64,000 nucleotides of DNA from Elusimicrobia bacterium RIFOXYA12_FULL_51_18. GTDB taxonomy: Bacteria > Elusimicrobiota > Elusimicrobia > Elusimicrobiales > UBA9959. Shown here one piece after another: positions 24,154 through 61,779 of this stretch (its first letter is position 1; each line of letters starts with the position of its first letter). The notes below the pieces were generated by a model. That model had not been told where the DNA came from, searched no databases, and saw nothing but the letters and a program-made list of their open reading frames with translations. The stretch covers positions 2,702-66,701 of the forward strand of contig MGVA01000008.1 of assembly GCA_001800245.1 (NCBI GenBank), read 5' to 3'. The position numbers and the translations under genes were made by a program.

Positions 24154-24187
24154 GTTATAAAAACCTGCGGGAAACCCCGGGCCAAGT

Positions 24188-24197
24188 CCCCCCCCCC
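24188..24197. repeat. C10 (G10 on the coding strand) homopolymer in the 78-nt spacer between the NeuB-like gene and the cytidylyltransferase gene
   Basis: The length is confirmed by the antisense track ORF 24073..24354, which reads ...AKSPPPG (tcc ccc ccc ccg). Confidence 0.9.
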
Positions 24198-24231
24198 GGG
24201 AGCAGGGCCAGCTTTTCCGGCACCTTTCTTA

Positions 24232-25071: not shown

Positions 25072-25087
25072 TTTTTCTCCTTTTATT

Positions 25088-25939: not shown

Positions 25940-26019
25940 ACACGAACAAAGTCATAAAACCGGTAAATATTATACCTTTTGTTATCGCACAGTTAAAAGC
26001 GGCATCAGCGTCAAAAGGC

Positions 26020-43733: not shown

Positions 43734-43746
43734 AGCGGGTGCGGAA

Positions 43747-45244: not shown

Positions 45245-45250
45245 GATCGT

Positions 45251-46420: not shown

Positions 46421-46445
46421 GCGGCTTCCTTCATAAAGACAAGCT

Positions 46446-47453
46446 TCACAATTTAACTTTTTCACCCGGCTTAAAACAACGAGGGGCCGGACGTCCTATG
46501 ACTTTATCCCATAGCATGGGCGACATCCCCCCGGCGGGCCGCATGGGAGCTATATTTTCCGCGGAAAACGCCTCACCTTTATTTATAGTCTTTATCGCCG
46601 TCAAACTTTTACGGACCACTTTGGCGTTACGCAACTCGCAAAGAGACGGCTTTTTAATTCCGGTTCCAAGAACCGCTTCGATATTCCTTACGGCTTTTAC
46701 CATGTCCCGGAACTCCCGGGGCTCCAGGCTTGCCTTGTGATCCGGACCTTTCATTTTCCGGTCAAGTGTAAGATGTTTCTCTATAACTTTTGCGCCAAGC
46801 GCCGCCGCCGCTAGAGAGACCTCTATACCTTCCGTATGATCAGAATACCCCACCCTGACCTTAAATTTCTTCGCTATGGTAAGCATAGCCGACAGATTCA
46901 CGTCTTTCATCGGGGCCGGATATTCGGTGCTGCAATGCAGCAAGACAATGTTTCGCCTGGTCGTACCGGCGGTTGTAAGAACTTTAAGAGCGGCGCCTAT
47001 CTCTTTCAGGGTCGCCATGCCGGTAGACAGGATGACCTTTCTGCGGGCGGCGCCGACTTTCCTGAGGTAGGGCAGGTTCGTTATCTCCCCGGAAGGGACC
47101 TTAATGATGCTCAGGCCTAGTTTCAGGAGAAAATCGACGCTTTCCGGGTCAAACGGAGAGGAGAGGAACCGTATCCCCAATTTACGGCAGTATGCCGACA
47201 GTATCCGGTGCGCAGGGCCGCTCAATTCTAGTTTTTTAAGCATCTGGAATTGGGAATCGGACAAGCCGGTGGTTTTTATCTGGTACGCCGCTTTTGGGGC
47301 AAAAGGTGTGACTAAACTGGAGGCCTTGAATGTCTGGAACTTAACGGCGTCAGCGCCGGCCATTTTGGCCGCAGCGGCCAGCTTTTTCGCGACAGCCAGG
47401 GAACCGTTATGGTTAACGCCCGCTTCGGCCACGATAAATACGCGTTTCTTCAT
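46446..47453 (-). CDS. legI: N-acetylneuraminate synthase family with SAF domain, LegI-like
   Basis: FIVAEAGVNHNGSLAVAKKL, AVKFQTF, YSDHTEG, and a C-terminal SAF-like segment (...INKGEAFSAENIAPMRP...KPGEKV). Confidence 0.8.
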   Translation of the reverse strand: MKKRVFIVAEAGVNHNGSLAVAKKLAAAAKMAGADAVKFQTFKASSLVTPFAPKAAYQIKTTGLSDSQFQMLKKLELSGPAHRILSAYCRKLGIRFLSSPFDPESVDFLLKLGLSIIKVPSGEITNLPYLRKVGAARRKVILSTGMATLKEIGAALKVLTTAGTTRRNIVLLHCSTEYPAPMKDVNLSAMLTIAKKFKVRVGYSDHTEGIEVSLAAAALGAKVIEKHLTLDRKMKGPDHKASLEPREFRDMVKAVRNIEAVLGTGIKKPSLCELRNAKVVRKSLTAIKTINKGEAFSAENIAPMRPAGGMSPMLWDKVIGRPAPRCFKPGEKVKL

Positions 47454-48091
47454 TTATTTTTAATTTTTTTAGCGGGATTTCCACAACAGATCACGCGGGC
47501 GGGAATATCCCTGACAACAATGCTGCCGGCCCCCACTACCGAATCAGCGCCTATTTTCAAATACTGCATGACCGCGCAACCAGTGCCTATATGAGCCCGG
47601 TTACCCACTTGCACTCCGCCGCTAAGCGCGGCGCCGGGCGCTATATGCGCGAAATCGCCTATGTTGCAGTCGTGCTCTATAATGGAGCCGGTGTTAAGTA
47701 TGCAGTGATCCCCTATCAAAGCACCGGGATTAACCACCGCCATCGGGCCGATATAATTACCGCAGCCCAGTGCCGCATATTCTGACACGACGGCGGACGG
47801 ATGAATAATATTCGGGAATTGAAAACCCGCTTTTTGCGCCAGGGTCCGGAGCTTTATCCGTCCTGAAGGGTCGCCGGTGCTGCCCAGGGTTATGCAGCAA
47901 AATCTGACGCCGCGGTCGAAATACGCGGTAAGATCGCTATCGCAGCCGGTTATGGGAACATCCAATACTTTTTGACCGACCCGGGCCTTAACATCCAGTA
48001 TGCCGGCCGGCGCGTAGACACCGGAGAGGCGTAAAGCGTTTATCACGCATTTCGCATGCCCGCCGCCGCCAAGAAGAAGGATCGGTTTCAT
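47450..48091 (-). CDS. legH: NeuD/PglD-family hexapeptide N-acetyltransferase, LegH-like
   Basis: ILLLGGGGHAKCVINAL N-terminal Rossmann-like domain followed by left-handed beta-helix repeats (IGDHCILNTGSIIEHDCNIGDFAHIAPG...). Confidence 0.75.
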   Translation of the reverse strand: MKPILLLGGGGHAKCVINALRLSGVYAPAGILDVKARVGQKVLDVPITGCDSDLTAYFDRGVRFCCITLGSTGDPSGRIKLRTLAQKAGFQFPNIIHPSAVVSEYAALGCGNYIGPMAVVNPGALIGDHCILNTGSIIEHDCNIGDFAHIAPGAALSGGVQVGNRAHIGTGCAVMQYLKIGADSVVGAGSIVVRDIPARVICCGNPAKKIKNK

Positions 48092-48093
48092 CG

Positions 48094-49155
48094 CTATTTA
48101 ACGCCAAGCCGCGCAAGGGTTTCCTGCAGTTGTTCCCATTGCCCGGTGTCGACCCAGGATTTGTCCGAGATCGGATAAACCCCCGTCTTAACGCCTTTTG
48201 CAAGACATTTATCTAGAAGTTCCGTCATGTGCATAAATGAGTTATCCGGGATTAGCTTCAAAATCCCGGGCTCCACCAGATACATGCCCGTATTCACCAG
48301 AAAATCATACTCCGGCTTTTCCCTGACGGCCGCCAAAGCCCCGCCCTTTTTTATATCGCAGACACCGTACGGGATGGTAAAATGCTTCATTGAACCCACA
48401 ATAGTTATTTTATTCCCGCTCTCCCGATGGAAACTAAGTATATCCGAATAATCCGCGTCGATAATAACGTCGCAGTTGCTGAGAAAAAAAGTAGTTTTTA
48501 TCTTTTGCCTGAGCAGATAAAGACTCCCGGCCGTTCCCAGCGGTTTAGGTTCTTCGATGAACTTAAGGTCGTAATCGCCCCGGACATCGCTGAAATACGC
48601 TTTTATCAGGTTGGCCCTAAAATTTATGGACATGTAAATATCGCGGCAGCCGTACTGGGAGAAACGCTGTATGATACATTGCGTCATCGTACTGTCGCCT
48701 ATCGGCATCAGAGGTTTTGGGAGTATATTGGTCAAGGGGGCCAGCCGCACGCCCTTCCCTCCGGCCATAATAACAACCGGCAGGTTCAGCTTATGAGTCT
48801 TATGCGCCTTATCCTTCAGGAAATCGAACCACCAGACGGCATTCTTCACGTGGCGCTGCCTGTCCACGACCGGAACGCACGCGAAGCGCTGTTCAACCAA
48901 CATAGCTTTGGCGGCCTCCTGTGAATACCCCTCTTCAAGGCAGTGAGGAGCCGGGTTCATTACGGAAGGGACTTTGGCGGTCAACCGTCCGCCTTTAAGT
49001 ATCCAGCGCCTTATATCCCCGTCGGAAAGGGACCCCAGCAGGATGTTCTGCGGGCCGATGACAAACACAATCTTCTCCCCGCCTTCATCCATCTTTTTCA
49101 GCGCCTGCTTAACCGTGAGCTCCGGGCTGATCAGTATTTTTTTTATCTTCTGCAT
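48094..49155 (-). CDS. ptmE: CBS-pair + sugar-phosphate nucleotidyltransferase, PtmE-like
   Basis: The ATG at 49155 gives MQKIKKILISPELTVKQALKKMDEGG (CBS). Then VVIMAGGKGVRLAPLTNILPKPL (NTP-transferase G-loop). Confidence 0.65.
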   Translation of the reverse strand: MQKIKKILISPELTVKQALKKMDEGGEKIVFVIGPQNILLGSLSDGDIRRWILKGGRLTAKVPSVMNPAPHCLEEGYSQEAAKAMLVEQRFACVPVVDRQRHVKNAVWWFDFLKDKAHKTHKLNLPVVIMAGGKGVRLAPLTNILPKPLMPIGDSTMTQCIIQRFSQYGCRDIYMSINFRANLIKAYFSDVRGDYDLKFIEEPKPLGTAGSLYLLRQKIKTTFFLSNCDVIIDADYSDILSFHRESGNKITIVGSMKHFTIPYGVCDIKKGGALAAVREKPEYDFLVNTGMYLVEPGILKLIPDNSFMHMTELLDKCLAKGVKTGVYPISDKSWVDTGQWEQLQETLARLGVK

Positions 49156-50333
49156 AATTTTCCCAAAAACCCGCAAACCCGCCTGATATCCCCGCCTGTC
49201 AGAGAAACGCTGCAGGGCAGATTCAAAGTCCTCTCCCAAAACCATAAAGCCCGGCTTATTTTATAAGCCTGGTTGCGGGAATACGGCTTTTGCAGGTGGT
49301 TCAAACGCCAGACCGGACGGGTCTGTATGCCGACGCGTTCAAGCCCTACCATCAGACTTTCCCTGTCGCGGCCATACGCCGCCTTATCCACAAGCACGGA
49401 ATAGAACCAGTGATTGGGCGAGGTATGCTCCGGAGCGCCCAGAAATGTTATCCCGTCTATATCGCTTAAATGTTCCGCGTAACTGCGGTAATTCCTTTTT
49501 TTGATCTCAATAAAGGCATGAAGCTGCTCCATCTGGGCCACTCCCAAAGCGGCCTGCAAATTTGTAAGCCGGAAATTATAGCCGATCTCGTTGTGGACAT
49601 AGCGGACAGCATCGTCTTTTGCCTGGGTCGTAAGATACTTGGCCCTGTCGGCCATGGCTTTGCTGCCTGTAACTATCATTCCCCCGCCGCCGGTCGTTAT
49701 TATTTTATTGCCGTTAAATGAAAACACTCCGAAGTCGCCGATCGTTCCAGTAAACCGGTTTTTGCAGGGCCCGTCCGTATAGTAAGAGCCAAGGCTTTCG
49801 GTCGCATCCTCTACGACTTTCAAGCGGTGCTTGCGGGCGAGCCGCATGATCGCGGCAATGTCGCAGGGATTACCGAAGACATGGACAAGCAATATCGCTT
49901 TTATCCGCCTGCCGGTTCTCCTGTTTACAACCCCGGATTTTTCCGTCCGGCATTGGGTTTCTAAAAAATCCTCAAGCTTTACCGGGTCAAGATTCATGAA
50001 ATTGTCGCAGTCCATGAAAACCGGCTCGGCGCCAAGATATTTGACAGCGTTAACAGGAGCTATAAAGGTCAGCGTAGGGACCAATACCTCATCCCCCTGT
50101 TTCACTCCGCACAACTTTAAACTTACGTATATTCCGACCGTCCCGTTCGAAACCGCCACCGCATGCTTGCCCTTTGTATATCCGCATATTTTCCGCTCGA
50201 AAACCCCGACATATTTTCCGGCGGCGGAAACCCAGCCGGTATCCAGGCAGTCCTTAACATATTTCCATGCGTTCCCCGTTATGCATGGCACGGACAATGG
50301 TATTGCCGCGGTTTTAGGCGGTCTAATGGGCAT
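49143..50333 (-). CDS. legC: DegT/DnrJ/EryC1-family aminotransferase, LegC-like
   Basis: IPLSVPCITGNAWKYVKDCLDTGWVSAAGKYV resembles the LegC N-terminal signature. FSFNGNKIITTGGGGM contains the catalytic Lys region. Confidence 0.75.
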   Translation of the reverse strand: MPIRPPKTAAIPLSVPCITGNAWKYVKDCLDTGWVSAAGKYVGVFERKICGYTKGKHAVAVSNGTVGIYVSLKLCGVKQGDEVLVPTLTFIAPVNAVKYLGAEPVFMDCDNFMNLDPVKLEDFLETQCRTEKSGVVNRRTGRRIKAILLVHVFGNPCDIAAIMRLARKHRLKVVEDATESLGSYYTDGPCKNRFTGTIGDFGVFSFNGNKIITTGGGGMIVTGSKAMADRAKYLTTQAKDDAVRYVHNEIGYNFRLTNLQAALGVAQMEQLHAFIEIKKRNYRSYAEHLSDIDGITFLGAPEHTSPNHWFYSVLVDKAAYGRDRESLMVGLERVGIQTRPVWRLNHLQKPYSRNQAYKISRALWFWERTLNLPCSVSLTGGDIRRVCGFLGKLCRR

Positions 50334-50397
50334 AGCGGGACCCCTTCCCGGGGAATTTACCCACAGGTGGACACCGTAGCGCGGTTTCCCCTACCTC

Positions 50398-50420
50398 GTT
50401 ACGGCACAGCCATAGGCTAG
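50398..50420. repeat. Junction repeat copy gttacggcacagccataggctag (inverted copy of the 5.4-kb unit)
   Basis: Its reverse complement ctagcctatggctgtgccgt is identical over 20 nt to about 5419-5438. It overlaps the TAG stop of the 50417..51415 gene. Confidence 0.8.
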
Positions 50421-51415
50421 ACATTATATGCATCCCATTTATAGTTCTTTATGTTTTCGGGATCCTTGAACCAGTCGATCGTTGCGGAAAGTCCTTTTTC
50501 CAGCGAGACGGCCGGCTTCCAGCCTGTAAGTTCCTTGATCCGCCCGTTATCGCACAAAAGTCTTTCCACCTCGCTGTTTTCGGGCCGTTTGCGCAGATCG
50601 TCCGGAATTATGTCGGCTTTTTTACCCATCGCGGAAATAATAAGTTCCGCTAAAGCTTTTATCGTTATCTCCCGACCGGAACCTATATTTACGGTTTTCC
50701 CAATAGCCGGATCGCATTTTGCCAACGCTATGAATCCGGCGCAGATGTCCGACACATAATTAAGGTCCCGCGTGGGATGCAGTGCGCCAAGCTTGATCTC
50801 TTTGGAACCTTTGACCAACTGGGTTATAATGGTCGGAATAATGGCTCTGGCCGACTGCCTGGGCCCGTAAGTGTTAAATGGCCTGGCGGTAACAACAGGC
50901 AATTTAAACGAGAGATAAAAGGACTCGGCTATTTTATCGGCCCCGATCTTACTGGCGGAATATGGAGACTGTCCCTGCAAGGGGTGTTTTTCGTCTATCG
51001 GCGCATATTTAGCCGTGCCATAGACTTCCGAGGTGGATGTTATTATGACCCGTCCGGTATTAAAATCACGGGCCGCCTGGAGCACGTTCAGCGTCCCTTT
51101 TACGTTCGTATCTATGTACGAGTCAGGTGAATGATAGGAGAATGGTATACCGATAAGGGCGGCGAGATGAAAAACGGCGTCAACCCCCTTCATCGCCGAA
51201 CGTACGCCATTCGGGTCCCGGATATCTCCTGAAAAGATCTCCACGCTTTTCAGTTTTTCCTTAGGGAACGTGTCCAGCCAGCCGCATGAACTGAATGAGT
51301 TGTAATAAACAAAAGCTTTTACCCTGGCTCCCTCTTCCAAAAGCGCCTCGACCAGGTGGCTGCCTATAAAACCGTCCGCTCCGGTGACAAGAACTTCTCG
51401 ATTTTTTAAGTCCAT
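50417..51415 (-). CDS. legB: NAD-dependent NDP-N-acetylglucosamine 4,6-dehydratase, LegB-like
   Basis: VLVTGADGFIGSHLVEALLEEGARVKAFVYYNSFSSCGWLD, YSASKIGADK. Confidence 0.75.
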   Translation of the reverse strand: MDLKNREVLVTGADGFIGSHLVEALLEEGARVKAFVYYNSFSSCGWLDTFPKEKLKSVEIFSGDIRDPNGVRSAMKGVDAVFHLAALIGIPFSYHSPDSYIDTNVKGTLNVLQAARDFNTGRVIITSTSEVYGTAKYAPIDEKHPLQGQSPYSASKIGADKIAESFYLSFKLPVVTARPFNTYGPRQSARAIIPTIITQLVKGSKEIKLGALHPTRDLNYVSDICAGFIALAKCDPAIGKTVNIGSGREITIKALAELIISAMGKKADIIPDDLRKRPENSEVERLLCDNGRIKELTGWKPAVSLEKGLSATIDWFKDPENIKNYKWDAYNV

Positions 51416-51432
51416 AATTTAAGCCCTGAGCC

Positions 51433-52482
<1,050 letters not shown>

Positions 52483-52595
52483 TTAACGGAACTAAACCGA
52501 TACCGCTTTTTGACTGGATATATAAAGCGGTCAATATGTCCTGAAAAGCGGCAAGTTTTCTCCTGCTTTTATCAGATCTTATCCTGATCTGGGTT

Positions 52596-53078
52596 TCAGA
52601 GGTCAAACTCGCTTTTTTTGCCTATAACCATGATCTTCGCCAATGTCACCATCCTGGCCATCAGAAGCACCGCGGATTTGCCGGTAAAATAGCGGCCGCC
52701 GTGCGAAAGTATCTGCCCGTTTTTGAGCAGCCTTGCCATTCTTACCGCCAAGATCTCCCTACTATTATATCTTCGCAGTATTTCGGGTTCCGAAAGGCCT
52801 TCGAGACGCTCATAAAGCTCTCTAACCAGCCTTATCCGGCGGGCTGTCTCGCCCAGATTTAAAAAATGGAAATAGCAATACCCGAAAGCGCCATAACACA
52901 GAATATCGCCCGGAAGCCGGGCGGTGAACCCGGAAAAACATATAACCGGCACAAGGCCGGCGGCAAAGCCCGCGAAAATGGAACGCAGCAGCGAACTAAA
53001 CGCCCTGGAAAGCGCGACCTGCACAAAAACATTTATAAGCAGGCCGAACACCGGAAGCAGCGCGCCCATAATAGTCAT
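52596..53078 (-). CDS. Small membrane protein B (3-4 TM plus basic C-terminal tail), paralog of 53075..53599
   Basis: Hydrophobic N-terminal half, then ARRIRLVRELYE...GGRYFTGKSAVLLMARM. 4-nt overlap with the upstream paralog. Confidence 0.55.
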   Translation of the reverse strand: MTIMGALLPVFGLLINVFVQVALSRAFSSLLRSIFAGFAAGLVPVICFSGFTARLPGDILCYGAFGYCYFHFLNLGETARRIRLVRELYERLEGLSEPEILRRYNSREILAVRMARLLKNGQILSHGGRYFTGKSAVLLMARMVTLAKIMVIGKKSEFDL

Positions 53079-53599
53079 CCGCCCTTCCCCCTGCCCAGCA
53101 GTGCCCTGTAAAAAATGAATAGCCTGGCGAATATAACGCCTTTGGAAGTCAGACGATATTTGCCGTTATCCATATAAGCCATCTTATCCAGGACCAGGTC
53201 CCTGATCCTCGGCTTCACAAGCTTGTCGTCGTTGACAAATTCGTTGAATTCGCTTTCCGCCATCCCCCCTGGCCCCGCTCCGGCCACCGTCATGGCGATG
53301 ACCAGCGAAGGACTGTCGGCTTCCAGAGCCGAGTAGGTTATCATGTAGGAAAGGATGAGCGAAATATCAAGCAGCGCCAGGTGCAGGTAATCGCCGGCGG
53401 TCACGGGGCAGGGTAAACCATAAAGCCAGGCCAGGGAACTGCCATAGGCCCGGAGCAACAGCAATACCGCGCCAAGCGCGCAGAACATGATCAGCAGGAG
53501 GGTTTTTGTCTGTCTTTTCGGGAGTTTTATCCGCCAGACCGCCAGGTGTATGAAAAACGAAACCAGAAAGGCCCCGCCCCCCCATATCAAAGTGGCCAT
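53075..53599 (-). CDS. Small membrane protein A (3-4 TM plus basic C-terminal tail)
   Basis: Hydrophobic N-terminal half, then KPRIRDLVLDKM...NGKYRLTSKGVIFARL. Starts 3 nt after the stop of the radical SAM gene. Confidence 0.55.
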   Translation of the reverse strand: MATLIWGGGAFLVSFFIHLAVWRIKLPKRQTKTLLLIMFCALGAVLLLLRAYGSSLAWLYGLPCPVTAGDYLHLALLDISLILSYMITYSALEADSPSLVIAMTVAGAGPGGMAESEFNEFVNDDKLVKPRIRDLVLDKMAYMDNGKYRLTSKGVIFARLFIFYRALLGRGKGG

Positions 53600-53602
53600 A
53601 TT

Positions 53603-54709
53603 TTAGATAAAGTTCTTATGCATAGGCTCTTCCTTGGGACTAGGGGGAAGCCTCCCCCCTTTTTCCTTCACTTCCCAGAGGAATTCGTTGACCTTATGCT
53701 GGAGGCAAAGCGTGCCGCACATGGTGCGGGCGTCGAATTTTTCGGAGGCTATCAAGTCCATGACCTCCCAATACCTGTCGCTCTTCCAGATATCCTTAAA
53801 ACGTTTTTCAGCGATATTCCCAATGTGGTACTTCATATATTTATCATTGAAGAGCATACCGCAGGGCGCGACCAGCCCGGAACCCGAAAGCTGGATTATA
53901 AAAGGAGGGCCGAAACATTTGGAATAGCACCGGCCGCCGCCGCTCATGATCTTGGACCATTTGGCCTTGACCAGGTATTTTTCGGTCGAAAGCGCTTCGG
54001 CCTCTTTAAGCAGGCCTTCCATGGCGAAATATTTGGAGTAATCCACATTCAGTACGCCGGTCTCGTCGTCGCTGCAGTGCTTTATGACCAGGTAATCCAC
54101 TCCCAGTTCCTTCCCGAGGCGCGCCAGCGGCAGGACCTGGTCGGCGAACTGCGGCATGAGCACCATCTGCAGCCCTATAGTGACGGGGAGGCGGCGTTTT
54201 TTCTTAACGGCCACGCATTTGCGGATAGTTTCCAGGACCTTATCGTAAGCCTCGGGCTTGCAACCCATTATTTCGGCATAACGCGCGCGCTCGCCGGCCG
54301 AGATATTGAACCGCAGGTAGGTCAGGTCCGGGAGCAACTCGTCCAGCTTGTCGTCCCTGAGCAGGTATCCGTTGGTGCCCAGCGCCATATCAAGGCCTTT
54401 TGCTTTGCCGTACGCTACGGCGTCGTACAGGTGCGGTGAGCAGGTGGATTCTCCGTCGCTTACAAAACTTATGGCTTTCACGCCTATTTCGGCGGCGTCG
54501 TCCAGAAAATTAAAAATTACTTCTTTGGTCATTTTCTTCACGTCGTTGGTCTGCAGTTGGCCGTAGCAATAGACGCATTTATAATTGCAGGCCCGTGTCA
54601 GAGAACAGTCCATTGTGATAGGCGCTATGCGTTCGCCGCGCAGCCATGCCTCAACCCTTTCGCAATGCCAGGCGAGCTTGTGTCCGTCCAGGATCATATT
54701 TTCAGTCAT
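53603..54709 (-). CDS. Radical SAM protein, paralog of 57571..58638
   Basis: DGHKLAWHCERVEAWLRGERIAPI...LTRACNYKCVYCYG (CxxxCxxC), C-terminal Cys residues, ends ...MHKNFI. Confidence 0.75.
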   Translation of the reverse strand: MTENMILDGHKLAWHCERVEAWLRGERIAPITMDCSLTRACNYKCVYCYGQLQTNDVKKMTKEVIFNFLDDAAEIGVKAISFVSDGESTCSPHLYDAVAYGKAKGLDMALGTNGYLLRDDKLDELLPDLTYLRFNISAGERARYAEIMGCKPEAYDKVLETIRKCVAVKKKRRLPVTIGLQMVLMPQFADQVLPLARLGKELGVDYLVIKHCSDDETGVLNVDYSKYFAMEGLLKEAEALSTEKYLVKAKWSKIMSGGGRCYSKCFGPPFIIQLSGSGLVAPCGMLFNDKYMKYHIGNIAEKRFKDIWKSDRYWEVMDLIASEKFDARTMCGTLCLQHKVNEFLWEVKEKGGRLPPSPKEEPMHKNFI

Positions 54710-55496
54710 TTGTTTTCTCTCCGCGCCGCGCGGCAGTCTGGGAGTCCGCCGGGAATGCGGCTTCCCGCGCGGAACCGGACGCGCGCATATCTGCTACCAG
54801 ACGCAGATAACCCCGCACGACCTGTATAAAACTGGGGAAGCTCACGGCTTTGGATACCCCGCTTGAACGGGCGCCGAGCCGGTACGGGACTTCCGCAAAA
54901 AGATAGCCTTCTTTTACGGAGCGCACAAGGATATCCGTCTGAAAGAAAAACCCGGTGGAATGGCGCTTTAATCCGCGCAACATGGACCGTCTGTAGATCA
55001 CCGTGCCGTTGGTATAGTTGAAATTAACCAGGAACGTTGTATTGATGATGAACCGGTAAAAGAAGGACAGCGCATTGCGCGCCAGAGACCGCGCCTGTTT
55101 ATTAAACACGAAAGGGATCACGATATCCACATGCGTAAGAAGGGGATAATACCTGAATATCTCCCACGGATCATTTTCATTATCGCCGGGCAGCATTACC
55201 ACGGCGGAGCCGCGGGCGGCCTCCACGCCGTCCCAGAAAGACGCGCCTATGCCGCAGGGAGCCGGATGGTCTATCAGGCGCACCCGGGCGTCGCGGGAAG
55301 CCTGCTCCCGCACTATTTCGGAAGTGCGGTCCCGCGACCCGTCGTTTATGACCACAAGTTCGCCTTTTAGGGAACAATCATCCATGGCCAGCAGGGTATT
55401 GGCCATCGCGGCGCCGATATTGCGCTCCTCGTTGAGCGCGGGCATGATAACGCTTATCTCCGGGGCGTAGGCGTTTTCGTTCGGGGCGGTATTCAT
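54702..55496 (-). CDS. Glycosyltransferase family 2, DPM1/ArnC-like polyprenyl-phosphate glycosyltransferase
   Basis: The ATG at 55496 forms an ATGA overlap with the E1-beta stop. ISVIMPALNEERNIG, LVVINDGSRDRT, MLPGDNEND. No C-terminal TM segments. Confidence 0.75.
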   Translation of the reverse strand: MNTAPNENAYAPEISVIMPALNEERNIGAAMANTLLAMDDCSLKGELVVINDGSRDRTSEIVREQASRDARVRLIDHPAPCGIGASFWDGVEAARGSAVVMLPGDNENDPWEIFRYYPLLTHVDIVIPFVFNKQARSLARNALSFFYRFIINTTFLVNFNYTNGTVIYRRSMLRGLKRHSTGFFFQTDILVRSVKEGYLFAEVPYRLGARSSGVSKAVSFPSFIQVVRGYLRLVADMRASGSAREAAFPADSQTAARRGEKTND

Positions 55497-56530
55497 AATC
55501 TGCAAATCTCTCTGGCTGCGGCGACAATATCATCTTTGCCGCGGTAATAGGCGTTTTCCAGGACCTGGGAGGCAGGCACAGGCGTATCCGGCATGCACAC
55601 CAGGCGCACAGGCGCCTTAAGGTCGTGCCAGGCCTTCTCCGCGGCCGCGGCGGCGATATTGCAGGCGAACGAGCCGGTCCGGCTGCCGGTGTCGGCCACA
55701 ATAAGACGGCCGGTTTTCTTGATCGAAGCGAAGATCATCTCCTCGTCGAGCGGTTTTATGGTCCGGGGATCTATCACCTCAGCGTCGATGCCTTCCGCGG
55801 CAAGCTCCCGTGCCGCCTTGATGGCTTCGTAAACCATAAGCGAGAGCGCCACGATGGTGATATCTTTGCCTTCCCTGCGGACTACTCCCTTTCCCAGGGG
55901 AATAGCGTACTTTTCCGCCGGCACATAACCGGTAAAATCGTAAAGCCATCTATGCTCAAAACAAAGCACCGGATTCCCGTCGGCCGAAGCGGAAATGAGC
56001 AGGCCCTTGGCGTCATACGGCACCGCCGGCATTATCACCTTAAGGCCGGGGATATGGGCGAATAAAGCGTGCAGAGCCTGGGAATGCTGGGCTGCGGAGC
56101 CCCACCCCCTTCCGGTTATGCTCCTGATGATCATCGGCACGCCCACCTTCCCGCCGGTCATATAACTCCATTTGGCGGCGTGATTGACTATCAGGTCCAT
56201 GCACATGGGCAGAAAATCAACGCGCATATGAATAAAAATAGGCCGCATACCGGCTATGGCCGCGCCCATGGCTATGCCAGTAAGGCCGTTCTCCGCGATG
56301 GGCATATCGAGAACGCGCCCGGGAAATTTACGATGCAGGTTAAGTGTTGAGCCGAATACCCCGCCGGGATCGTCTATCCCTTCTCCGATAAGGAAAACGG
56401 AAGGATCCGACTCCAGCAGCTGTTCCTGGCCTTCGCGCAAAGCGTCGCGATAGGACAGACCTCTCAGCCCCTGTTTCCCCAGGGTATCTTCGAAGTCGGA
56501 CTTATCGATGAGCACTTTTGTCCAGGGCAT
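55493..56530 (-). CDS. TPP-dependent 2-oxoacid dehydrogenase E1 component, beta subunit (transketolase-like)
   Basis: FLIGEGIDDPGGVFGST, DMPIAENGLTGIAMGAAIAGMRPI, HSQALHALFAHIPGLKV. Confidence 0.85.
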   Translation of the reverse strand: MPWTKVLIDKSDFEDTLGKQGLRGLSYRDALREGQEQLLESDPSVFLIGEGIDDPGGVFGSTLNLHRKFPGRVLDMPIAENGLTGIAMGAAIAGMRPIFIHMRVDFLPMCMDLIVNHAAKWSYMTGGKVGVPMIIRSITGRGWGSAAQHSQALHALFAHIPGLKVIMPAVPYDAKGLLISASADGNPVLCFEHRWLYDFTGYVPAEKYAIPLGKGVVRREGKDITIVALSLMVYEAIKAARELAAEGIDAEVIDPRTIKPLDEEMIFASIKKTGRLIVADTGSRTGSFACNIAAAAAEKAWHDLKAPVRLVCMPDTPVPASQVLENAYYRGKDDIVAAAREICRL

Positions 56531-57543
56531 CAGAATATTCCTTGGCGGTATACGTCCTTATAAAGGTCTTCCGGCAGCGGCATCTTCTCCGCCAAGGCCG
56601 CGCGCCAGGCGGCGGCTATCTCGGCGTCTATTTCTTTAAGCATGGCGTCTAAAACCGGGACCGAAAGGACGCCGCTCTTTAAAAGCGCGTTCTTAAAAAG
56701 TTTGACCGGGCAGCGTTCCATCCACTGGTCCAGTTCTTCTTTCGGCCGGCAACCCTTAAGATGGTCGCAGTCCGGCCCCACGTGGCCCTTCCAGCGGTAA
56801 GTTTTGCACTCAAGGAAAAACGGGCCGGCGCCGGAGCGGACATGGGCTATAGCCTCCACCGCCGCCTTGTGCACGGCCAGCACGTCGTTACCGTCTACTA
56901 TTACGCTCGGGATGCAATAGGCTCCGGCATGGCGAGCGATATCGGAGTGGGCCTGCCGGGCGCACAGCCGGGAATTGGTCGCATAGCCGTTGTTCTCGCA
57001 GACGAAAAGCGCAGGCAGCTTTTTAAGCGAAGAGAAATTAAGGGTTTCATGGAACAGCCCTTCCTCCGAAGCTCCGTCGCCGAAGAAGGAAACCGAGATC
57101 CTGCCGTCCCCGCGCAGAAAGGAAGCAAGCGCCGCGCCCGCGCCCAGCGGAATGGAGCCTCCGACAATGGCGGAGGTGCCCAGACAGGAGACCGACGGAT
57201 CCACCATATGCATGGACCCGCCTTTGCCTCCGGAACAGCCTCCTGCGCGGCCGTACATCTCTGCCACCATGGACGCCATCGCGGCGCCTTTCACCAGCAA
57301 ATGACCGTGGTTGCGGTGAGTGCTGAACACGTAATCTTCCCGCTTGAGATTAAGGCACACTCCGGCGGCCACAGCTTCCTGGCCGATGGAAAGATGAACC
57401 GGAGTTTTCATCTCCTGCGCGCCGTAAACCTCCACGATCTTCTCCTCGAAGCGGCGGACGCGCAGCATGGCGCGCATAAGCGCGAGTTCGGTTTCGCGCG
57501 GGACGGGATCGGCTGGAAGTTTTTTGTTTTTACTTTGCGGCAT
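56530..57543 (-). CDS. TPP-dependent 2-oxoacid dehydrogenase E1 component, alpha subunit
   Basis: RRFEEKIVEVYG, HLSIGQEAVAAG, HRNHGHLL, GGKGGSMH, FFGDGASEEGLFHETLNF...FVCENNGYA (TPP motif). Start is the ATG at 57543 or the TTG at 57561. Confidence 0.85.
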   Translation of the reverse strand: MPQSKNKKLPADPVPRETELALMRAMLRVRRFEEKIVEVYGAQEMKTPVHLSIGQEAVAAGVCLNLKREDYVFSTHRNHGHLLVKGAAMASMVAEMYGRAGGCSGGKGGSMHMVDPSVSCLGTSAIVGGSIPLGAGAALASFLRGDGRISVSFFGDGASEEGLFHETLNFSSLKKLPALFVCENNGYATNSRLCARQAHSDIARHAGAYCIPSVIVDGNDVLAVHKAAVEAIAHVRSGAGPFFLECKTYRWKGHVGPDCDHLKGCRPKEELDQWMERCPVKLFKNALLKSGVLSVPVLDAMLKEIDAEIAAAWRAALAEKMPLPEDLYKDVYRQGIF

Positions 57544-57570
57544 AAATACGGTACGAGCCAAACAACCTGG

Positions 57571-58638
57571 CTATATAAAATTCACGTGCTCGGGTGGATG
57601 GCGCAAGTCCCAAAGATAACTGTTTACCTCATCCATCCGGCAGTTAACGCGGCACTTTGAAGTATCCAGACGGTTAGCCACCATCCGGAGGGAGCGTTTA
57701 CGCTTCTCGCTTTCCCAAACCTTTTTAAAAGACGATTCCATGATGTTCCCATAGAGGAACTCTTTCTTGCCCAGGAACATGCTGCATCCCCAGACATTCC
57801 CCCCCGCGTCGATGTAGGTCCAGAACGGCAGGGCGCAGCATTTGCCGTAATGTTTGGCGGCGGCATCCCATTTCTGCATGGTTTTCATACGGAATACGAC
57901 GCTGAATGCAGGGGAAGAGTATTTTTGCAGCCGCTTGGACAACGCTTCATAATCCGCATACCGTATATTACGGTATTTGTCGGTTTTACTCTGCGGATGC
58001 TGGGAATACGGTTTAACTATCAGGTAATCCATACCTGCGGCCCTGGCGCGTTCGGCGAGGAGTTCCACTTCGCCCGCGTTTTCGGGAAGAAGCACAAGCT
58101 GCATACCGAGGGTCGTCTTATAACCCTTTCTGCGCCGCAGCCCGTCGGCATATTTCATATTGGCGAAAACTTTTTCAAAATCTTCCTGCCTGCACCCGTG
58201 GATCTTCGCGTATGTTTTTGCCGTGCCGCCGTTTATGCTTACCTTTATCCATTCCACGCTCTTAAGGCACTCATCCGCTATGGCGGGCTTGAAAAGCGCC
58301 GCGTTGGTGGTAAAAGAAACATCGATCCCGGCGGCTTTGGTTGCGTTAGTGATCTCCGCCATCCGAGGGTGGAGGAAAGGCTCCCCCTCGCCGGCATACA
58401 TTATGCTTTTCAGCCCGAGTTTCCCCATTTCGCCAAGCCGCTTTATAAGAATGCCGGCATCCAGGAACCGGGGCTTATATTCCATAAAATCAAGCGCGCA
58501 GTAAACGCACCGGTGGTTACAGGCTCCGGACGGAGAGAGCTCGGCATATATGGGATAAATATTGCGGCCGGCCAACCAATCAGTCACTCTGCCCGGATGG
58601 TAAATGAGTTTGTGCGAATCAATACGGTACTTATCCAT
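57571..58638 (-). CDS. Radical SAM protein, paralog of 53603..54709
   Basis: DSHKLIYHPGRVTDWLAGRNIYPI...SPSGACNHRCVYCALD (CxxxCxxC), C-terminal Cys residues, ends ...EHVNFI. Confidence 0.75.
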   Translation of the reverse strand: MDKYRIDSHKLIYHPGRVTDWLAGRNIYPIYAELSPSGACNHRCVYCALDFMEYKPRFLDAGILIKRLGEMGKLGLKSIMYAGEGEPFLHPRMAEITNATKAAGIDVSFTTNAALFKPAIADECLKSVEWIKVSINGGTAKTYAKIHGCRQEDFEKVFANMKYADGLRRRKGYKTTLGMQLVLLPENAGEVELLAERARAAGMDYLIVKPYSQHPQSKTDKYRNIRYADYEALSKRLQKYSSPAFSVVFRMKTMQKWDAAAKHYGKCCALPFWTYIDAGGNVWGCSMFLGKKEFLYGNIMESSFKKVWESEKRKRSLRMVANRLDTSKCRVNCRMDEVNSYLWDLRHPPEHVNFI

Positions 58639-58652
58639 AGTTTATCCGGAGA

Positions 58653-59225
58653 TCAGCGCGGCTTTATGAGCAGGTCGGAAAGATAGTGGCACAACACCGA
58701 GTGGGCAAGCTCGACCATACCGTAAGATCCGCTGTTAATGAAAATATTCACGTCCCCAAGGCGGCTTAACGGATTACCCTGCTTAAAGCCGGACATTGTA
58801 ACGCACCAGAGACCTTTAGCCTTGGCCTCCTCCACGGCGTGCAGGATATTTTCCGACCGACCCGAACTTGATACGGCCATGAGAATATCCCCTTTGTCGG
58901 AGAACATTTCCACGGGCTTGCGAAACACGTTCGGATAACCGTAATCATTGGCGACACAGGTCAGCAGCGAAGCGTCGGAGAATGATACCGCCCTGATATT
59001 GGCGTTATTCCAGAGATCGAGGACGAAATGATTAACCACCGCCGCCGAACCGCCGTTGCCGACGGCGATAACTTTAGCCGAAGTTCCGCGCAGCGCGGAG
59101 ATGCGTGCGACGACCCCGGAAACGGCGTCCGCGAAGGGCCTAGGCGCCCCGCTGTGGTCGGTGGTGACCGCCGCAGAAAGCAAAGTTCGCAGATCGGATG
59201 TATAAATGTCCAGAGAGGGAACCAT
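58653..59225 (-). CDS. SIS-domain sugar-phosphate isomerase, divergent GmhA-like
   Basis: VIAVGNGGSAAVVNHFVLDL, CVANDYGYPNVFRKPVE, LMAVSSSGRSENI. Confidence 0.7.
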   Translation of the reverse strand: MVPSLDIYTSDLRTLLSAAVTTDHSGAPRPFADAVSGVVARISALRGTSAKVIAVGNGGSAAVVNHFVLDLWNNANIRAVSFSDASLLTCVANDYGYPNVFRKPVEMFSDKGDILMAVSSSGRSENILHAVEEAKAKGLWCVTMSGFKQGNPLSRLGDVNIFINSGSYGMVELAHSVLCHYLSDLLIKPR

Positions 59226-59235
59226 AGCTGACGCC

Positions 59236-60774
59236 TCACTTTAGTATCGTAATAACCGATTTATAGAGCGGCACCGGGTCTATCGAAGACCGGTTACAGA
59301 CAATGCTTACCTTAAACGCGCCCACAAGGTTGCCCATAAGGCCGACAACCTCCATGGGAATCCCGGCAGCCACCATGGGGGCGGTTACCGAGAGAAAAGC
59401 GTCGCCAGCTCCGACGCGGTCAACAACTTTATCCGAAAAGACCGGGATCTCGAAAAAACCGGCGGAACTGTCGTACACCAGCGCGCCCAGATGTCCACGT
59501 GTGACTGCGACTTTTGCGCAACGCATATCCTTGGCGATGCGCTCTATGGCGGCTTGAATATCCCCGTATTTATCGCGCGCGGCATAGCGCATCTCCGGCT
59601 CGTCGATGCAGATATAATCCGCCCTCGGATATTTAGTAATCAGGTTATACCCGTTATTCGCCGAATTTGTCTGGGTATTTACGGCCAGGAAACGCGCCTT
59701 GCGGCAAAGCACTTCTATGATCTTATCGTCTATAAAGCCATGCCCGAAATCGGAAACAAGGACCATATCGTAACCGGCGACGGTATCCTCCAGGAAGCCC
59801 CGCACCTGGGAACTTATTTCCGGCGGCAGCGGATGGTCGTTGAAGAACTGGACCTCAAAAAGTTTATCAAGGAAGGCGGGGTCCACAAAGCGGCGTTTTG
59901 TGACGGTACAGGCGTCGGAACGGGTGAAAATTTTCGGCTCCACATTGGGTTTTAGATGGTCAAGAACATACTCCAGCTTGTCTTCCTCCGTGCCAAGGCA
60001 GGTTACCATTCTAACCTCTTTCACGAACCCCGCCGCGTGATTGGCGCAGGCAAGCACTCCGCCGGCAAAACGCTCTTCGCTGATAAACTTGGTGCAGATC
60101 ATGTTGTCTTTGGGGGCTTTTCCCAGACCGCGGCAGTAATGGTATTCATCAATAATGGTATCGCCCACCAGCAGTACCTTCATGGACGAAAGCTTCTGCA
60201 TGGCGCTTATAATGCCGTCCGCGGTGTGGGCGGCCTTGAATTTTTCCAGAAATTCTTTGGTTTGGGCCGGAAAAACGCTGAAAAATTTATTAAGCAGTTC
60301 CGTCGAACTGAAAGTGATCTCATCCGTGAAATGAAGCCGTCCGCCATTGCGTTCCACGGCCTCACGCTCATGCACAATGCCGCCGGTAATGTCCTTTTCC
60401 GGAGCAGCGTAGTCGGAACCCTTAATATAAACGCCGGGTTTAAGCAGATTGATGGTTTCCAGCGCCGTCGGCCAGGAATTGACGGCCACATAGTCAACGC
60501 ATGCCAGAGCCGCGATAGATTCCGCCCTCAAATGCTCGTTGAACACCGGCCGGCCGGGACCCTTGTTCACATACCGGTCCGGAGTGATGGTCACCACCAG
60601 AACATCGCCCTGGCCGCGTGCGGCCTCAAGGTGTTTAATATGGCCGGGATGCATCAGATCATATACGCCGTGACAATGCACCACCACTTTCCCGCCGTTT
60701 TTAAGCCGCTCTACTATGTGCGCAAGCTCTGCGATAGGGTGTATTTTAGCATGACCGCCGGAAGTGGATTTCAT
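59236..60774 (-). CDS. Bifunctional cytidylyl/adenylyl-transferase (N-terminal) + PfkB sugar kinase (C-terminal); HldE-like with reversed domain order
   Basis: N-terminal VVHCHGVYDLMHPGHIKHLEAA (HxGH nucleotidyltransferase). C-terminal ribokinase-like VLLVGDTIIDEY...DRVGAGDAF. Confidence 0.75.
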   Translation of the reverse strand: MKSTSGGHAKIHPIAELAHIVERLKNGGKVVVHCHGVYDLMHPGHIKHLEAARGQGDVLVVTITPDRYVNKGPGRPVFNEHLRAESIAALACVDYVAVNSWPTALETINLLKPGVYIKGSDYAAPEKDITGGIVHEREAVERNGGRLHFTDEITFSSTELLNKFFSVFPAQTKEFLEKFKAAHTADGIISAMQKLSSMKVLLVGDTIIDEYHYCRGLGKAPKDNMICTKFISEERFAGGVLACANHAAGFVKEVRMVTCLGTEEDKLEYVLDHLKPNVEPKIFTRSDACTVTKRRFVDPAFLDKLFEVQFFNDHPLPPEISSQVRGFLEDTVAGYDMVLVSDFGHGFIDDKIIEVLCRKARFLAVNTQTNSANNGYNLITKYPRADYICIDEPEMRYAARDKYGDIQAAIERIAKDMRCAKVAVTRGHLGALVYDSSAGFFEIPVFSDKVVDRVGAGDAFLSVTAPMVAAGIPMEVVGLMGNLVGAFKVSIVCNRSSIDPVPLYKSVITILK

Positions 60775-60897
60775 TTTTTAACGTCTCCTAAATATCGGTT
60801 TACTTTTCCTTTAAACCTTCATATTCTGTCAGACAATATCGCAGTAGATAAAAACGATTATTAAAAATCAGCCGTTATAAAATCGGGGAGAGTTCTC

Positions 60898-61779
60898 TTG
60901 CAAACAGATATAGATCTTTCCAAGCAAATAAAAGAGGTATTGAATAGAAATAATATTCAAATCGGCTCCATGAAGTTTGTTGATTCAGATACTAAGGAGA
61001 ATTTATTTGCGCAGCGCACCAAGGCAATAGTGCTGATTAACAACAAGGTGTTTGAGCGTAAAATCAATCCCCTGGCGGATGATCATACTCTTGACATCTT
61101 CGACACCCAACTGAATCCCTATCTTAAAAAAGGACAACCAGTCCTGGTTGTCCTGCCGACTGACGGCAAAAAACGCTATGTACTCCAGACTAAAATCGTC
61201 AACATTTTTATTGACCGCTTTCAACTCGTTGTCCTTGACCCAAGAGATGCAAAGCGTTTTTCTTTTTCTTCTCCGCTGGGGGTAAAAATCAGGGCCGTTT
61301 GTGAGGCGACCGCAATCCGGATTCAGACCGGCGAAGTTAGGCTCAGCCGACACATCGACGAGTCCTTGCTGGAGGTACCTGCCAGCGGGAACATACAAAG
61401 CGCACCGCCTTGCCAGGATCCACTTTTTTCAATCAAGGATATCCTTCTTAATGATGAAGGGAGCGATCAAGCCGACGATTTTGCCAAATTAGAAGGCCAA
61501 CACCCGATTGATGGCAATATCATTGATATATCCTGTGGCGGCATGTGCGTATCCTATCAGCATAGTGCAGGCGCAAGATTTTTTGTTCATCAGATGCTGG
61601 TCATGGAATGTTCCTTCGCTAATGGTTCGAAGGCCCATCCAGAAAATGAGCGGATCAATCTCTTTATTCTTGCTATCGTTAGGAGCATGAAAAGCAATCA
61701 GGACCATAAGCAGTTGAATCTGCAATTTCTTGCCGCCTTGCCTAAGACAATACAAAGCTATTGGCAATCAGAAAGCTGA
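60898..61779 (+). CDS. PilZ-domain protein (putative c-di-GMP receptor), non-canonical spacing
   Basis: TTG start with SD GGGGAGAG 5 nt upstream. RDAKR (RxxxR) at ~aa 116-120 and DISCGGMCV (DxSxxG) at ~aa 210-218. Confidence 0.55.
   Translation: MQTDIDLSKQIKEVLNRNNIQIGSMKFVDSDTKENLFAQRTKAIVLINNKVFERKINPLADDHTLDIFDTQLNPYLKKGQPVLVVLPTDGKKRYVLQTKIVNIFIDRFQLVVLDPRDAKRFSFSSPLGVKIRAVCEATAIRIQTGEVRLSRHIDESLLEVPASGNIQSAPPCQDPLFSIKDILLNDEGSDQADDFAKLEGQHPIDGNIIDISCGGMCVSYQHSAGARFFVHQMLVMECSFANGSKAHPENERINLFILAIVRSMKSNQDHKQLNLQFLAALPKTIQSYWQSES

Follow-up and report, generated by a model that had tools for sequence, protein, structure and literature searches.

Gene organization of the nine-gene operon

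The DNA analyzed in this work (the window) is a stretch of 64,000 nucleotides (nt) from Elusimicrobia bacterium RIFOXYA12_FULL_51_18 (contig MGVA01000008.1, positions 2,702 to 66,701), and its subject is an operon of nine minus-strand genes (g1 to g9) at 52596-60774. The operon encodes a PfkB-kinase/nucleotidyltransferase fusion, an isomerase, two radical S-adenosylmethionine (SAM) enzymes (rSAM-a and rSAM-b), the two E1 subunits of a thiamine diphosphate (ThDP) enzyme, a family 2 glycosyltransferase (GT2) and two small membrane proteins (mem1 and mem2). All nine open reading frames (ORFs) lie at the coordinates given in an initial annotation made from the DNA alone, and Pfam returned exactly the domains predicted there for g1-g7 and none for g8 and g9. 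The genes, with lengths in amino acids (aa), and the remnant of a short-chain dehydrogenase/reductase (SDR) gene next to g1 are as follows:

59236..60774, minus strand: g1, nucleotidyltransferase-PfkB fusion, 512 aa (Pfam PF01467 + PF00294)
58653..59225, minus strand: g2, GmhA-like SIS sugar-phosphate isomerase, 190 aa (Pfam SIS_2)
57571..58638, minus strand: g3, radical SAM enzyme rSAM-a, 355 aa (PF04055 + PF13186)
56530..57561, minus strand: g4, ThDP-dependent E1 alpha, start TTG 57561 or ATG 57543 (PF00676, E 1.9e-72)
55493..56530, minus strand: g5, E1 beta, 345 aa (PF02779 + PF02780)
54702..55496, minus strand: g6, DPM1/ArnC/GtrB-like GT2 free of transmembrane (TM) helices (PF00535, Glycos_transf_2)
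53603..54709, minus strand: g7, radical SAM enzyme rSAM-b, 368 aa (PF04055 + PF13186)
53075..53599, minus strand: g8, membrane protein mem1, 174 aa (no Pfam/NCBIfam match)
52596..53078, minus strand: g9, membrane protein mem2, 160 aa (no Pfam/NCBIfam match)
60775..60798, minus strand: SDR gene remnant, last ~24-28 nt (blastn vs L005, L006)

The spacing is +10 nt between g1 and g2, +14 nt between g2 and g3, and +9 nt between g3 and g4 if g4 begins at its TTG start, or +27 nt if it begins at the ATG at codon 7, which is the choice of gene callers. The g4 and g5 genes share a 1-nt overlap, g5 and g6 a 4-nt ATGA overlap (55493-55496) provided that g6 starts at the ATG at 55496 (giving 264 aa, or 267 aa from the TTG at 55505), g6 and g7 an 8-nt overlap (54702-54709), and g8 and g9 a 4-nt overlap (53075-53078); g7 and g8 are 3 nt apart, and a 149-nt gap follows g9. 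The coordinates and the overlaps at 55493-55496, 54702-54709 and 53075-53078 thus hold, and the nine genes form one tightly packed operon as originally described. They are real genes and not chance ORFs, since each has hundreds to thousands of homologues.

Distribution and modularity of the cassette

The operon had been considered an orphan, which it is not: the same block recurs across many phyla, and the operon appears to be one copy of a widespread, horizontally spread cassette. The block rSAM-a/thiamine enzyme/GT2/rSAM-b/mem1/mem2 was found in Elusimicrobiota, Omnitrophota, Nitrospirota, Nitrospinota, Planctomycetota, Desulfobacterota, bacteria of the candidate phyla radiation (CPR) and DPANN archaea, and the cassette as a whole is spread over about a dozen phyla, mostly uncultivated, with enzymes that are 60-79% identical. 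The annotated gene order, i.e., fusion, (SIS), rSAM-a, E1alpha, E1beta, GT2, rSAM-b, (TIM-barrel AP_endonuc_2), mem1, mem2, was seen in a 2.2-Mb Elusimicrobia-like contig, a Desulfarculus metagenome-assembled genome (MAG), a Nitrospiraceae contig and a Patescibacteria MAG.

A mem2 profile retrieved 64 loci from Elusimicrobiota, Nitrospirota, Nitrospinota, Omnitrophota, Planctomycetota (Scalindua), several Desulfobacterota, Latescibacterota, TA06, Levybacteria and a Woesearchaeote; co-occurrence was counted in the 37 of them whose upstream sequence extends for at least 8 kb. Among these 37, GT2 is present in 28, rSAM-b in 30 and a ThDP enzyme in 23, all three being found together in 21; rSAM-a occurs in 20, a B12-binding radical SAM enzyme (B12-rSAM) in 16 and the fusion in 11. 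The cassette therefore reads as modular, with three putative parts: an activation module (the fusion, SIS in some cases, and either the SDR or both an ArgZ-like protein and a stand-alone nucleotidyltransferase, the fusion in the ArgZ-like variant having a degenerate HxGH motif), a tailoring/loading core (rSAM-a, ThDP enzyme, GT2, rSAM-b), and a membrane module (the mem1/mem2 pair, which B12-rSAM and a large polytopic protein often accompany).

Cassette genes were also observed in a Nanoarchaeota MAG (L014), a Woesearchaeota MAG (L099), three CPR bacteria (L016, L093, L096) and two Pelagibacterales of the SAR11 type (L017, L018), with rSAM-b identities of 55-70% in the DPANN, CPR and SAR11-type genomes. 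Carriers of this kind imply wide horizontal transfer, across domains too. Among the carriers, Nitrospina sp. 32_T5 (L108) is a cultured one.

The thiamine enzyme encoded by g4 and g5

The alpha subunit (g4) has an E1_dh domain and the beta subunit (g5) has Transket_pyr and Transketolase_C domains; the ThDP motif GDGASEEG...CENN and the YRWKGHVGP region are conserved in the E1alpha orthologues of the cassette. No E2/lipoyl or E3 domain was found in the scanned window ORFs (nearly all ORFs of at least 150 aa), and the domain scans thus agree with the earlier description of a stand-alone E1 pair. E1 alpha/beta occupies the same cassette position in at least 16 of the 37 loci, and its place is taken by a split transketolase (Transketolase_N, then Transket_pyr/C) in 12 loci, one of them in a Brocadiales MAG. 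A Patescibacteria MAG encodes a 608-aa E1beta-GT2 fusion protein.

One explanation of the pair is that it is a housekeeping E1 of pyruvate or acetoin dehydrogenase whose presence in the locus is accidental. Both subunits do strongly resemble pyruvate dehydrogenase (PDH) E1 models, and the best solved relative of g4 is human PDH E1alpha, but g4 scores 325.6 bits with NCBIfam PDH_E1_alph_y (cut-off 393.85) and g5 scores 308 bits with NF006667 (cut-off 321), E2 and E3 are missing from the window, the position is conserved, with split transketolase exchanged for the pair elsewhere, and an E1beta-GT2 fusion exists. We give this explanation an almost negligible probability. That the E1 pair is not a housekeeping enzyme is supported by its travelling with the cassette in many phyla, where the gene order is kept and the neighbourhood is conserved in relatives, and by the substitution of split transketolase in other loci. 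Because the two ThDP enzymes that exchange places share only carbanion/C2-transfer chemistry, the swap supports a predicted function in C2 transfer, rather than in oxidative decarboxylation feeding an E2.

The initial annotation had likened the pair to AviB1/AviB2, and the conserved cassette position and the transketolase swap fit such a role in C2 transfer. YerE is an enzyme of yersiniose biosynthesis. AviB1/AviB2 and Pau11/Pau12 have been proposed to attach a C2 unit from pyruvate, as a C-4 acetyl branch, to a 4-keto sugar (PMC4753412). Like these three systems, g4/g5 would be a stand-alone E1 alpha/beta pair without E2/E3 within a sugar-biosynthesis cluster. AviB1/B2 and Pau11/12 differ in belonging to actinomycete antibiotic pathways that act on dTDP/NDP-deoxyhexoses (NDP, nucleoside diphosphate), whereas the context of g4/g5 is a surface glycan with HldE-like activation, two radical SAM enzymes and a lipid-carrier step.

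The glycosyltransferase encoded by g6

The nearest solved relatives of g6 are the Pyrococcus dolichol-phosphate mannose synthase DPMS (5mlz), ArnC and GtrB, which bears out its earlier description as DPM1/ArnC-like and supports placing it with the polyprenyl-phosphate GT2s. The alignment to 5mlz spans residues 11-230, pairing RSSGVSK of g6 with RARGESK, and the R..G[VI]SK (RxxG[VI]SK) motif is conserved in 49 g6 orthologues. From this relationship the acceptor of g6 is predicted to be polyprenyl phosphate. No hydrophobic segment was detected in g6, whereas bacterial and archaeal polyprenyl-phosphate GT2s have C-terminal TM helices; g6 resembles in this respect the TM-less eukaryotic DPM1. A catalytic GT2 without TM helices that is encoded with two small, possibly tethering membrane proteins recalls DPM1/DPM2/DPM3, by analogy only; mem1 and mem2 differ in carrying winged-helix domains and in occurring without GT2 as well.

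Besides the E1beta-GT2 fusion, a 616-aa GT2-rSAM-b fusion is found in cluster P0123 (15 members). The existence of the two fusions suggests that the ThDP enzyme, GT2 and rSAM-b may work as a complex, while some fusions could be artefacts because the neighbouring genes overlap.

The radical SAM enzymes encoded by g3 and g7

The two radical SAM proteins are clear paralogues (29% identity, E 2e-56), as had been proposed, and in both PF04055 and PF13186 score above the cut-offs. The g3 protein contains the CX3CX2C motif and a C-terminal auxiliary-cluster domain; in rSAM-b, C41/C45/C48 and C265/C283/C331/C335 are invariant, the paralogue included. Since only four Cys outside CX3CX2C are invariant in both paralogues, the pattern points to one auxiliary cluster per enzyme, of the twitch type. 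Both families also have a distinctive N-terminal extension (HKLxWH...RV..WL) and an invariant C-terminal HxNF[IV] motif (HxNFI in rSAM-a).

The most conserved gene of the cassette is rSAM-b, which is 71-79% identical across Elusimicrobiota, Omnitrophota, Nitrospirota, Brocadia, Desulfarculus and Patescibacteria. A single-sequence search of solved structures with rSAM-b gave nothing, while profile and fold searches did find relatives: DesII is the best profile match (E 2.8e-11), the C-terminal region matches the twitch region of BtrN, and the AlphaFold (AF2) model (pLDDT 87.5) has DesII (E 1.7e-15) and BlsE (E 3.9e-13) as its top Foldseek matches. The substrate of DesII is TDP-4-amino-4,6-dideoxyglucose, a pyranose bound to a nucleotide. 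BlsE acts on cytosylglucuronic acid, a pyranose on a nucleoside (PMC3715490). The cassette enzyme resembles DesII, BlsE and BtrN in fold, profile and its single twitch-like set of four extra Cys; the identity is only 15-18%, and the N-terminal extension and HxNF[IV] motif of the cassette enzymes set them apart from all three. In the first genome scan with rSAM-b, the hits were swamped by unrelated Acidobacteriota radical SAM genes with a CNYKCVYC pattern, and only L011-L018 were true orthologues.

The membrane proteins mem1 and mem2

Both mem1 and mem2 consist of three TM helices and a cytoplasmic winged-helix-like domain. In the AF2 model of mem1 (pLDDT 85.8) the three TM helices are followed by a helical two-stranded domain. 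The mem1 motif MITYSALEADSPS lies at the end of TM3, with YSALEADSPS at the cytoplasmic TM3 end and E93, D95, S96 and P97 invariant; in mem2 the cytoplasmic TM3 end carries GYCYFHFxNLGETARRIR. The two genes belong together, mem1 standing directly before mem2 in 63 of the 64 loci. We found 239 homologues of mem1, all annotated as "hypothetical", and 1135 representative clusters of mem2 at E<=1e-3.

The initial annotation had regarded the two proteins as paralogues and as a pair of the ArnE/F kind. The first statement stands at the profile level, where hhalign finds their C-terminal domains to be related (probability 87%, E 3.9e-6), and not at the level of BLASTP, which detected no similarity between g8 and g9. 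The second is not borne out by the architecture of three TM helices plus winged helix: neither protein has a four-TM EamA/SMR-like or GtrA fold, and for neither was there a Pfam or NCBIfam match or a similarity to EamA, GtrA or MATE. The Foldseek search with mem1 gave no membrane-transporter fold and only weak matches to MarR/HucR/YodB winged-helix proteins; none was significant, and homology to ArnE/F, GtrA or DPM2/3 is therefore unsupported. In a 462-aa protein (P0498), a mem2-family domain (residues 7-166) is fused to an NAD-dependent epimerase/dehydratase (SDR); this fusion puts the mem2 C-terminus on the cytoplasmic side and shows that the module is able to tether a sugar-modifying enzyme. 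The membrane pair may be a scaffold or anchor instead of a flippase, or may serve as both.

In seven loci (L098, L100, L110, L114, L117, L132, L134), mem1/mem2 were observed without the GT2/rSAM-b/ThDP core and adjoin a conserved B12-binding radical SAM protein (~515 aa) and a YfhO-family protein (826-852 aa), and L098 has in addition a carbamoyltransferase and an ABC exporter. The same mem1/mem2 pair may be the basis of another type of system.

Putative GT-C partners of the cassette

In relatives, genes for GT-C glycosyltransferases adjoin the cassette (L003, L091, L092, L098, L117): a YfhO gene (779 aa) follows mem2 in Desulfarculus, a PMT_2 gene (611 aa) lies between rSAM-b and mem1 in Nitrospiraceae, and PMT_2 is found downstream of the cassette in Brocadiales. 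An ORF of at least 450 aa with at least 8 TM-like segments occurs within 6 kb of mem2 in 18/38 loci, compared with 0/61 control loci. These YfhO/PMT_2 neighbours support the scheme of the initial annotation, in which the sugar is loaded on polyprenyl phosphate and transferred by a GT-C enzyme. The candidates that it named for the last step in the window (38271-39842 and 2-1408) fared less well: they are polytopic, have no family match at E<=1, and are unlike YfhO/PMT_2. Polytopic proteins with ~7-11 hydrophobic segments and no Pfam match at E<=1 are encoded at 38271-39842, 32471-33913, 12536-13993, 10368-11723 and 140-1408, and these five could be Wzy-, ligase- or GT-C-like.

Putative sugar-activation genes g1 and g2

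In the g1 protein, the CTP_transf_like domain (residues 35-159, HxGH motif HPGH) precedes the PfkB domain (residues ~192-490, kinase motif GAGDAF), and both motifs are conserved in the type-1 orthologues. As noted in the initial annotation, this is the reverse of HldE, in which PfkB is N-terminal and the nucleotidyltransferase C-terminal, and g1 does not have the HldE arrangement. Homologues number more than 100, with 57-65% identity, in Elusimicrobiota, Nitrospirota and Brocadiales. The g2 protein has phosphoheptose isomerases (GmhA) as its only top solved relatives (E 4e-23), and it aligns His, Asp (for Glu), Glu (for Gln) and His with positions that we take to be the metal and catalytic sites of GmhA.

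The two proteins thus resemble HldE, by joining a PfkB kinase and an HxGH nucleotidyltransferase in one polypeptide, and GmhA, by closest structural relationship. They differ from these enzymes in domain order, in scores far under the equivalog cut-offs (g1: HldE NF008454, 135.3 bits vs 521, rfaE_dom_I, 92.5 vs 345, and rfaE_dom_II, 99.3 vs 181.5; g2: gmhA TIGR00441, 101.7 bits vs 209), and in that the nucleotidyltransferase domain of g1 is nearest to cytidylyltransferases among solved structures (ethanolamine-P cytidylyltransferase 3elb, the other nearest structure of g1 being HldA 4e84). Based on the GmhA-like isomerase and the HldE-like fusion, the sugar in this organism is probably heptose-derived.

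A second fusion subtype with a degenerate HxGH motif (HPGI, HPGN or HPGL) was observed in L091, L092, L105, L108, L120, L123, L142 and L152, usually preceded by a stand-alone CTP_transf_like protein and a protein with an ArgZ-like_C_2nd domain. The degenerate motif and the usual stand-alone CTP_transf_like protein suggest that the fused nucleotidyltransferase domain has been inactivated in this subtype, with the separate enzyme as backup.

Proposed pathway and its alternatives

From the gene identities, conservation, co-occurrence, fusions and fold relationships we infer a pathway, including its substrate and product, whether its steps precede or follow lipid loading, and what the membrane pair does. 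In our preferred reading, with a probability of roughly 0.5, the cassette makes an unusual sugar and loads it on polyprenyl phosphate, so that a surface polymer can be glycosylated outside the cytoplasmic membrane; in this reading it belongs, as a variant, with the three-component systems GtrA/B/X, ArnC/EF/T and CsbB/GtcA/YfhO. The setting of the operon within a surface-glycan locus and its GC content, which is above that of its flanks, also speak for this reading. The GmhA-like isomerase and the reversed HldE-like kinase/nucleotidyltransferase would produce an NDP-activated heptose-type sugar, which in relatives could be oxidized or dehydrated by the SDR encoded directly upstream. The stand-alone ThDP enzyme would move a two-carbon unit onto a sugar carbonyl, yielding a branched or extended sugar, and the two DesII/BlsE-like radical SAM enzymes, with one auxiliary cluster each, could carry out a radical redox, deoxygenation or epimerization step. 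The TM-less DPM1-like GT2 would then put the sugar on polyprenyl phosphate; the heterodimer-like mem1/mem2 pair would keep the soluble enzymes at the membrane, translocate the lipid-linked sugar, or do both; and a GT-C enzyme (of YfhO or PMT_2 type in relatives) would pass the sugar to its acceptor.

A more specific version of this proposal is possible but doubtful: an undescribed route in which ThDP and DesII-like radical SAM chemistry is coupled to a TM-less GT2 and organized by a new scaffold/translocator family, the product being a C2-branched or chain-extended higher-carbon sugar new to glycans, and the route having spread horizontally through anaerobic/uncultivated lineages including CPR and DPANN.

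Several observations weigh against the preferred reading. No product of the cassette has ever been observed, and the acceptor of the GT2 is a prediction only; PGD of g6 aligns to DAD of the DXD motif, whose first Asp it lacks, with PGDNEND conserved in the orthologues. There is no recognizable GT-C in the window, where Pfam at E<=1 gave only noise on the polytopic ORFs and none of four YfhO/PMT_2 proteins from related loci had a counterpart by phmmer. The membrane pair also occurs without GT2, beside B12-rSAM and YfhO, and its role is therefore not tied to GT2 alone. The SDR found before g1 in relatives is missing in the window. Only 11 of the 37 well-covered loci combine the core with the fusion/SIS module, so the sugar may differ among lineages, and no HAD-family match that would indicate a GmhB-type phosphatase was found in the scanned window ORFs or annotated cassettes, so the canonical heptose route is incomplete. 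The heptose assignment of the initial annotation is thus weaker than claimed.

A serious alternative, by reason of the fusions and the tethering architecture, is that tailoring takes place on the lipid: GT2 would first load a simple sugar on polyprenyl phosphate, and the ThDP enzyme and rSAM-b (elsewhere B12-rSAM/SDR) would modify it in lipid-linked form, held by the winged-helix domains of mem1/mem2. This is the same scheme as the preferred one with another step order and a scaffold role for the membrane pair. The E1beta-GT2, GT2-rSAM-b and mem2-SDR fusions, the lack of a TM segment in GT2, the presence of B12-rSAM with mem1/mem2 in 16 of the 37 loci, and that of B12-rSAM and YfhO even where GT2 is missing all fit it, and there are precedents in ArnD, DprE1/E2 and the epimerases of PMC11127046. 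DesII and BlsE, however, as the nearest structural relatives of rSAM-b, use soluble nucleotide- or nucleoside-linked sugars, and fusions of overlapping neighbours can be assembly or frameshift artefacts; we regard the alternative as rather unlikely on balance. It is unlikelier still that the route is cytoplasmic throughout, with the GT2 acting as a Leloir transferase that adds a modified NDP-sugar to the repeat unit linked to undecaprenyl pyrophosphate of the window's polysaccharide, and with the membrane proteins accessory or unrelated. Such a route would suit a locus with an undetectable GT-C, its own Wzx genes, Wzy-like proteins and many glycosyltransferases, as well as a GT2 without TM helices and canonical DXD, but every one of the best solved relatives of the GT2 is a polyprenyl-phosphate glycosyltransferase, the alignment runs through the RxxGxSK acceptor-side motif, and in relatives the GT2 gene adjoins mem1/mem2 and GT-C genes.

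The suggestion that the product is a modified lipid or small molecule (a glycosylated isoprenoid/hopanoid-type lipid), or that E1 makes an acyl donor for N-acylating the neighbouring nonulosonic acid, draws on NCBIfam matches, in which the GT2 weakly resembles HpnB and CruG and the radical SAM enzymes weakly resemble HpnH, and on the position of the cassette beside legionaminic-acid-type genes here. We consider it quite improbable, as many cassette loci have no NeuB and instead have Wzy/Wzz/Wza, YfhO or PMT_2, no acyl carrier, CoA ligase or E2 is present, and the carriers include CPR bacteria and DPANN archaea.

Comparison with three-component systems and significance

Three-component systems rely on a GT2 to form a polyprenyl-phosphate sugar, on a small membrane component to carry it across the membrane and on a GT-C enzyme to transfer it (PMC11127046, PMC8035078); pentofuranose systems are also of this kind (PMC11127046). 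The cassette resembles them in its DPM1/GtrB/ArnC-type g6, the adjoining small membrane proteins, the YfhO/PMT_2 GT-C genes in relatives and the embedding of the operon in a surface-polysaccharide locus. It differs in that g6 is TM-less, mem1/mem2 are unrelated to GtrA/GtcA, ArnE/F and MATE flippases, and no GT-C was identified in the window. We know of no described system that uses ThDP and radical SAM enzymes to tailor its donor sugar. Full-text searches of the literature for this combination of genes turned up no account of the cassette or pathway, in line with the initial annotation that the gene set matches no known sugar pathway.

The mem1 and mem2 proteins constitute two undescribed protein families, the combination of enzymes is uncharacterized, and its distribution in poorly studied phyla is very wide. 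If the proposal is true, tailoring by ThDP and radical SAM enzymes would be new chemistry in bacterial sugar biosynthesis, and a new membrane-protein family would be added to the catalogue of that field. Thousands of proteins annotated as "hypothetical" or "radical SAM protein" in Elusimicrobiota, Omnitrophota, Nitrospirota/Nitrospinota, anammox Planctomycetota, Desulfobacterota, CPR bacteria and DPANN archaea would find an explanation, and an unknown surface sugar would be predicted in organisms with almost unstudied envelopes. For biochemistry, direct handles are offered by the fusion proteins and by rSAM-b, whose conservation is very high (71-79% across phyla).

Upstream boundary of the operon

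By blastn, window positions 49236-60798 are 100% identical to L005 and L006, which are other assemblies of the same project. The identity ends 24 nt upstream of the g1 ATG, which marks the breakpoint of the locus. In these assemblies an SDR gene (331 aa in L005-L008) precedes g1 and overlaps its start, with another nonulosonic-acid cluster further upstream; beyond the SDR remnant, the window sequence continues (to 64000) with a PilZ-domain ORF, a CxxCxxCC protein and AprB. The 36-nt junction upstream of g1 has no match in metagenome_contigs or genome_contigs. Because the identity stops at 60798 and only a remnant of the SDR gene is left, either the first gene of the window locus was lost through rearrangement or the assembly is chimeric. 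The GC content is 0.566 in the operon, 0.51 in the downstream flank and 0.45-0.47 in the upstream flank. A promoter/terminator scan of the locus was uninformative. A strong terminator-like hairpin on the minus strand (61131-61154; 10-bp stem and T-run), ~360 nt upstream of g1, falls within the weakly supported plus-strand PilZ-domain ORF.

The surrounding glycan locus

The window is essentially one ~60 kb surface-glycan locus with an initiating Bac_transf phosphoglycosyltransferase (1467-2858), FnlABC-like genes, several GT4 and GT2 genes, two Wzx-type flippases, Wzy-like proteins, methyltransferases, a B12-radical SAM gene and two NeuB/CMP-transferase sets. One of these sets belongs to a legionaminic-acid-type cluster (42230-52446) that lies directly downstream of the operon and is composed of two SDRs, a DegT aminotransferase, a CBS-NTP-transferase, a PglD-like acetyltransferase, NeuB, a NeuC-like 2-epimerase, a CMP-transferase and an SDR, followed by HisF/HisH-like genes, which suggest an acetamidino modification.

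The B12-radical SAM gene of the window (19934-21322) was considered as a part of the cassette system and rejected: it matches the cassette-associated B12-rSAM only weakly, with 103 bits compared with 360-400 bits among the orthologues. It belongs to the genes that come after a second unusual set at 23413-26601, in which a SIS_2 protein (193 aa, 26020-26601) and a radical SAM/SPASM protein (283 aa, 25088-25939) are encoded together with the second NeuB (24232-25224) and the second CMP-transferase (23413-24153); the other genes after this set encode a glyoxalase-fold protein and two methyltransferases.

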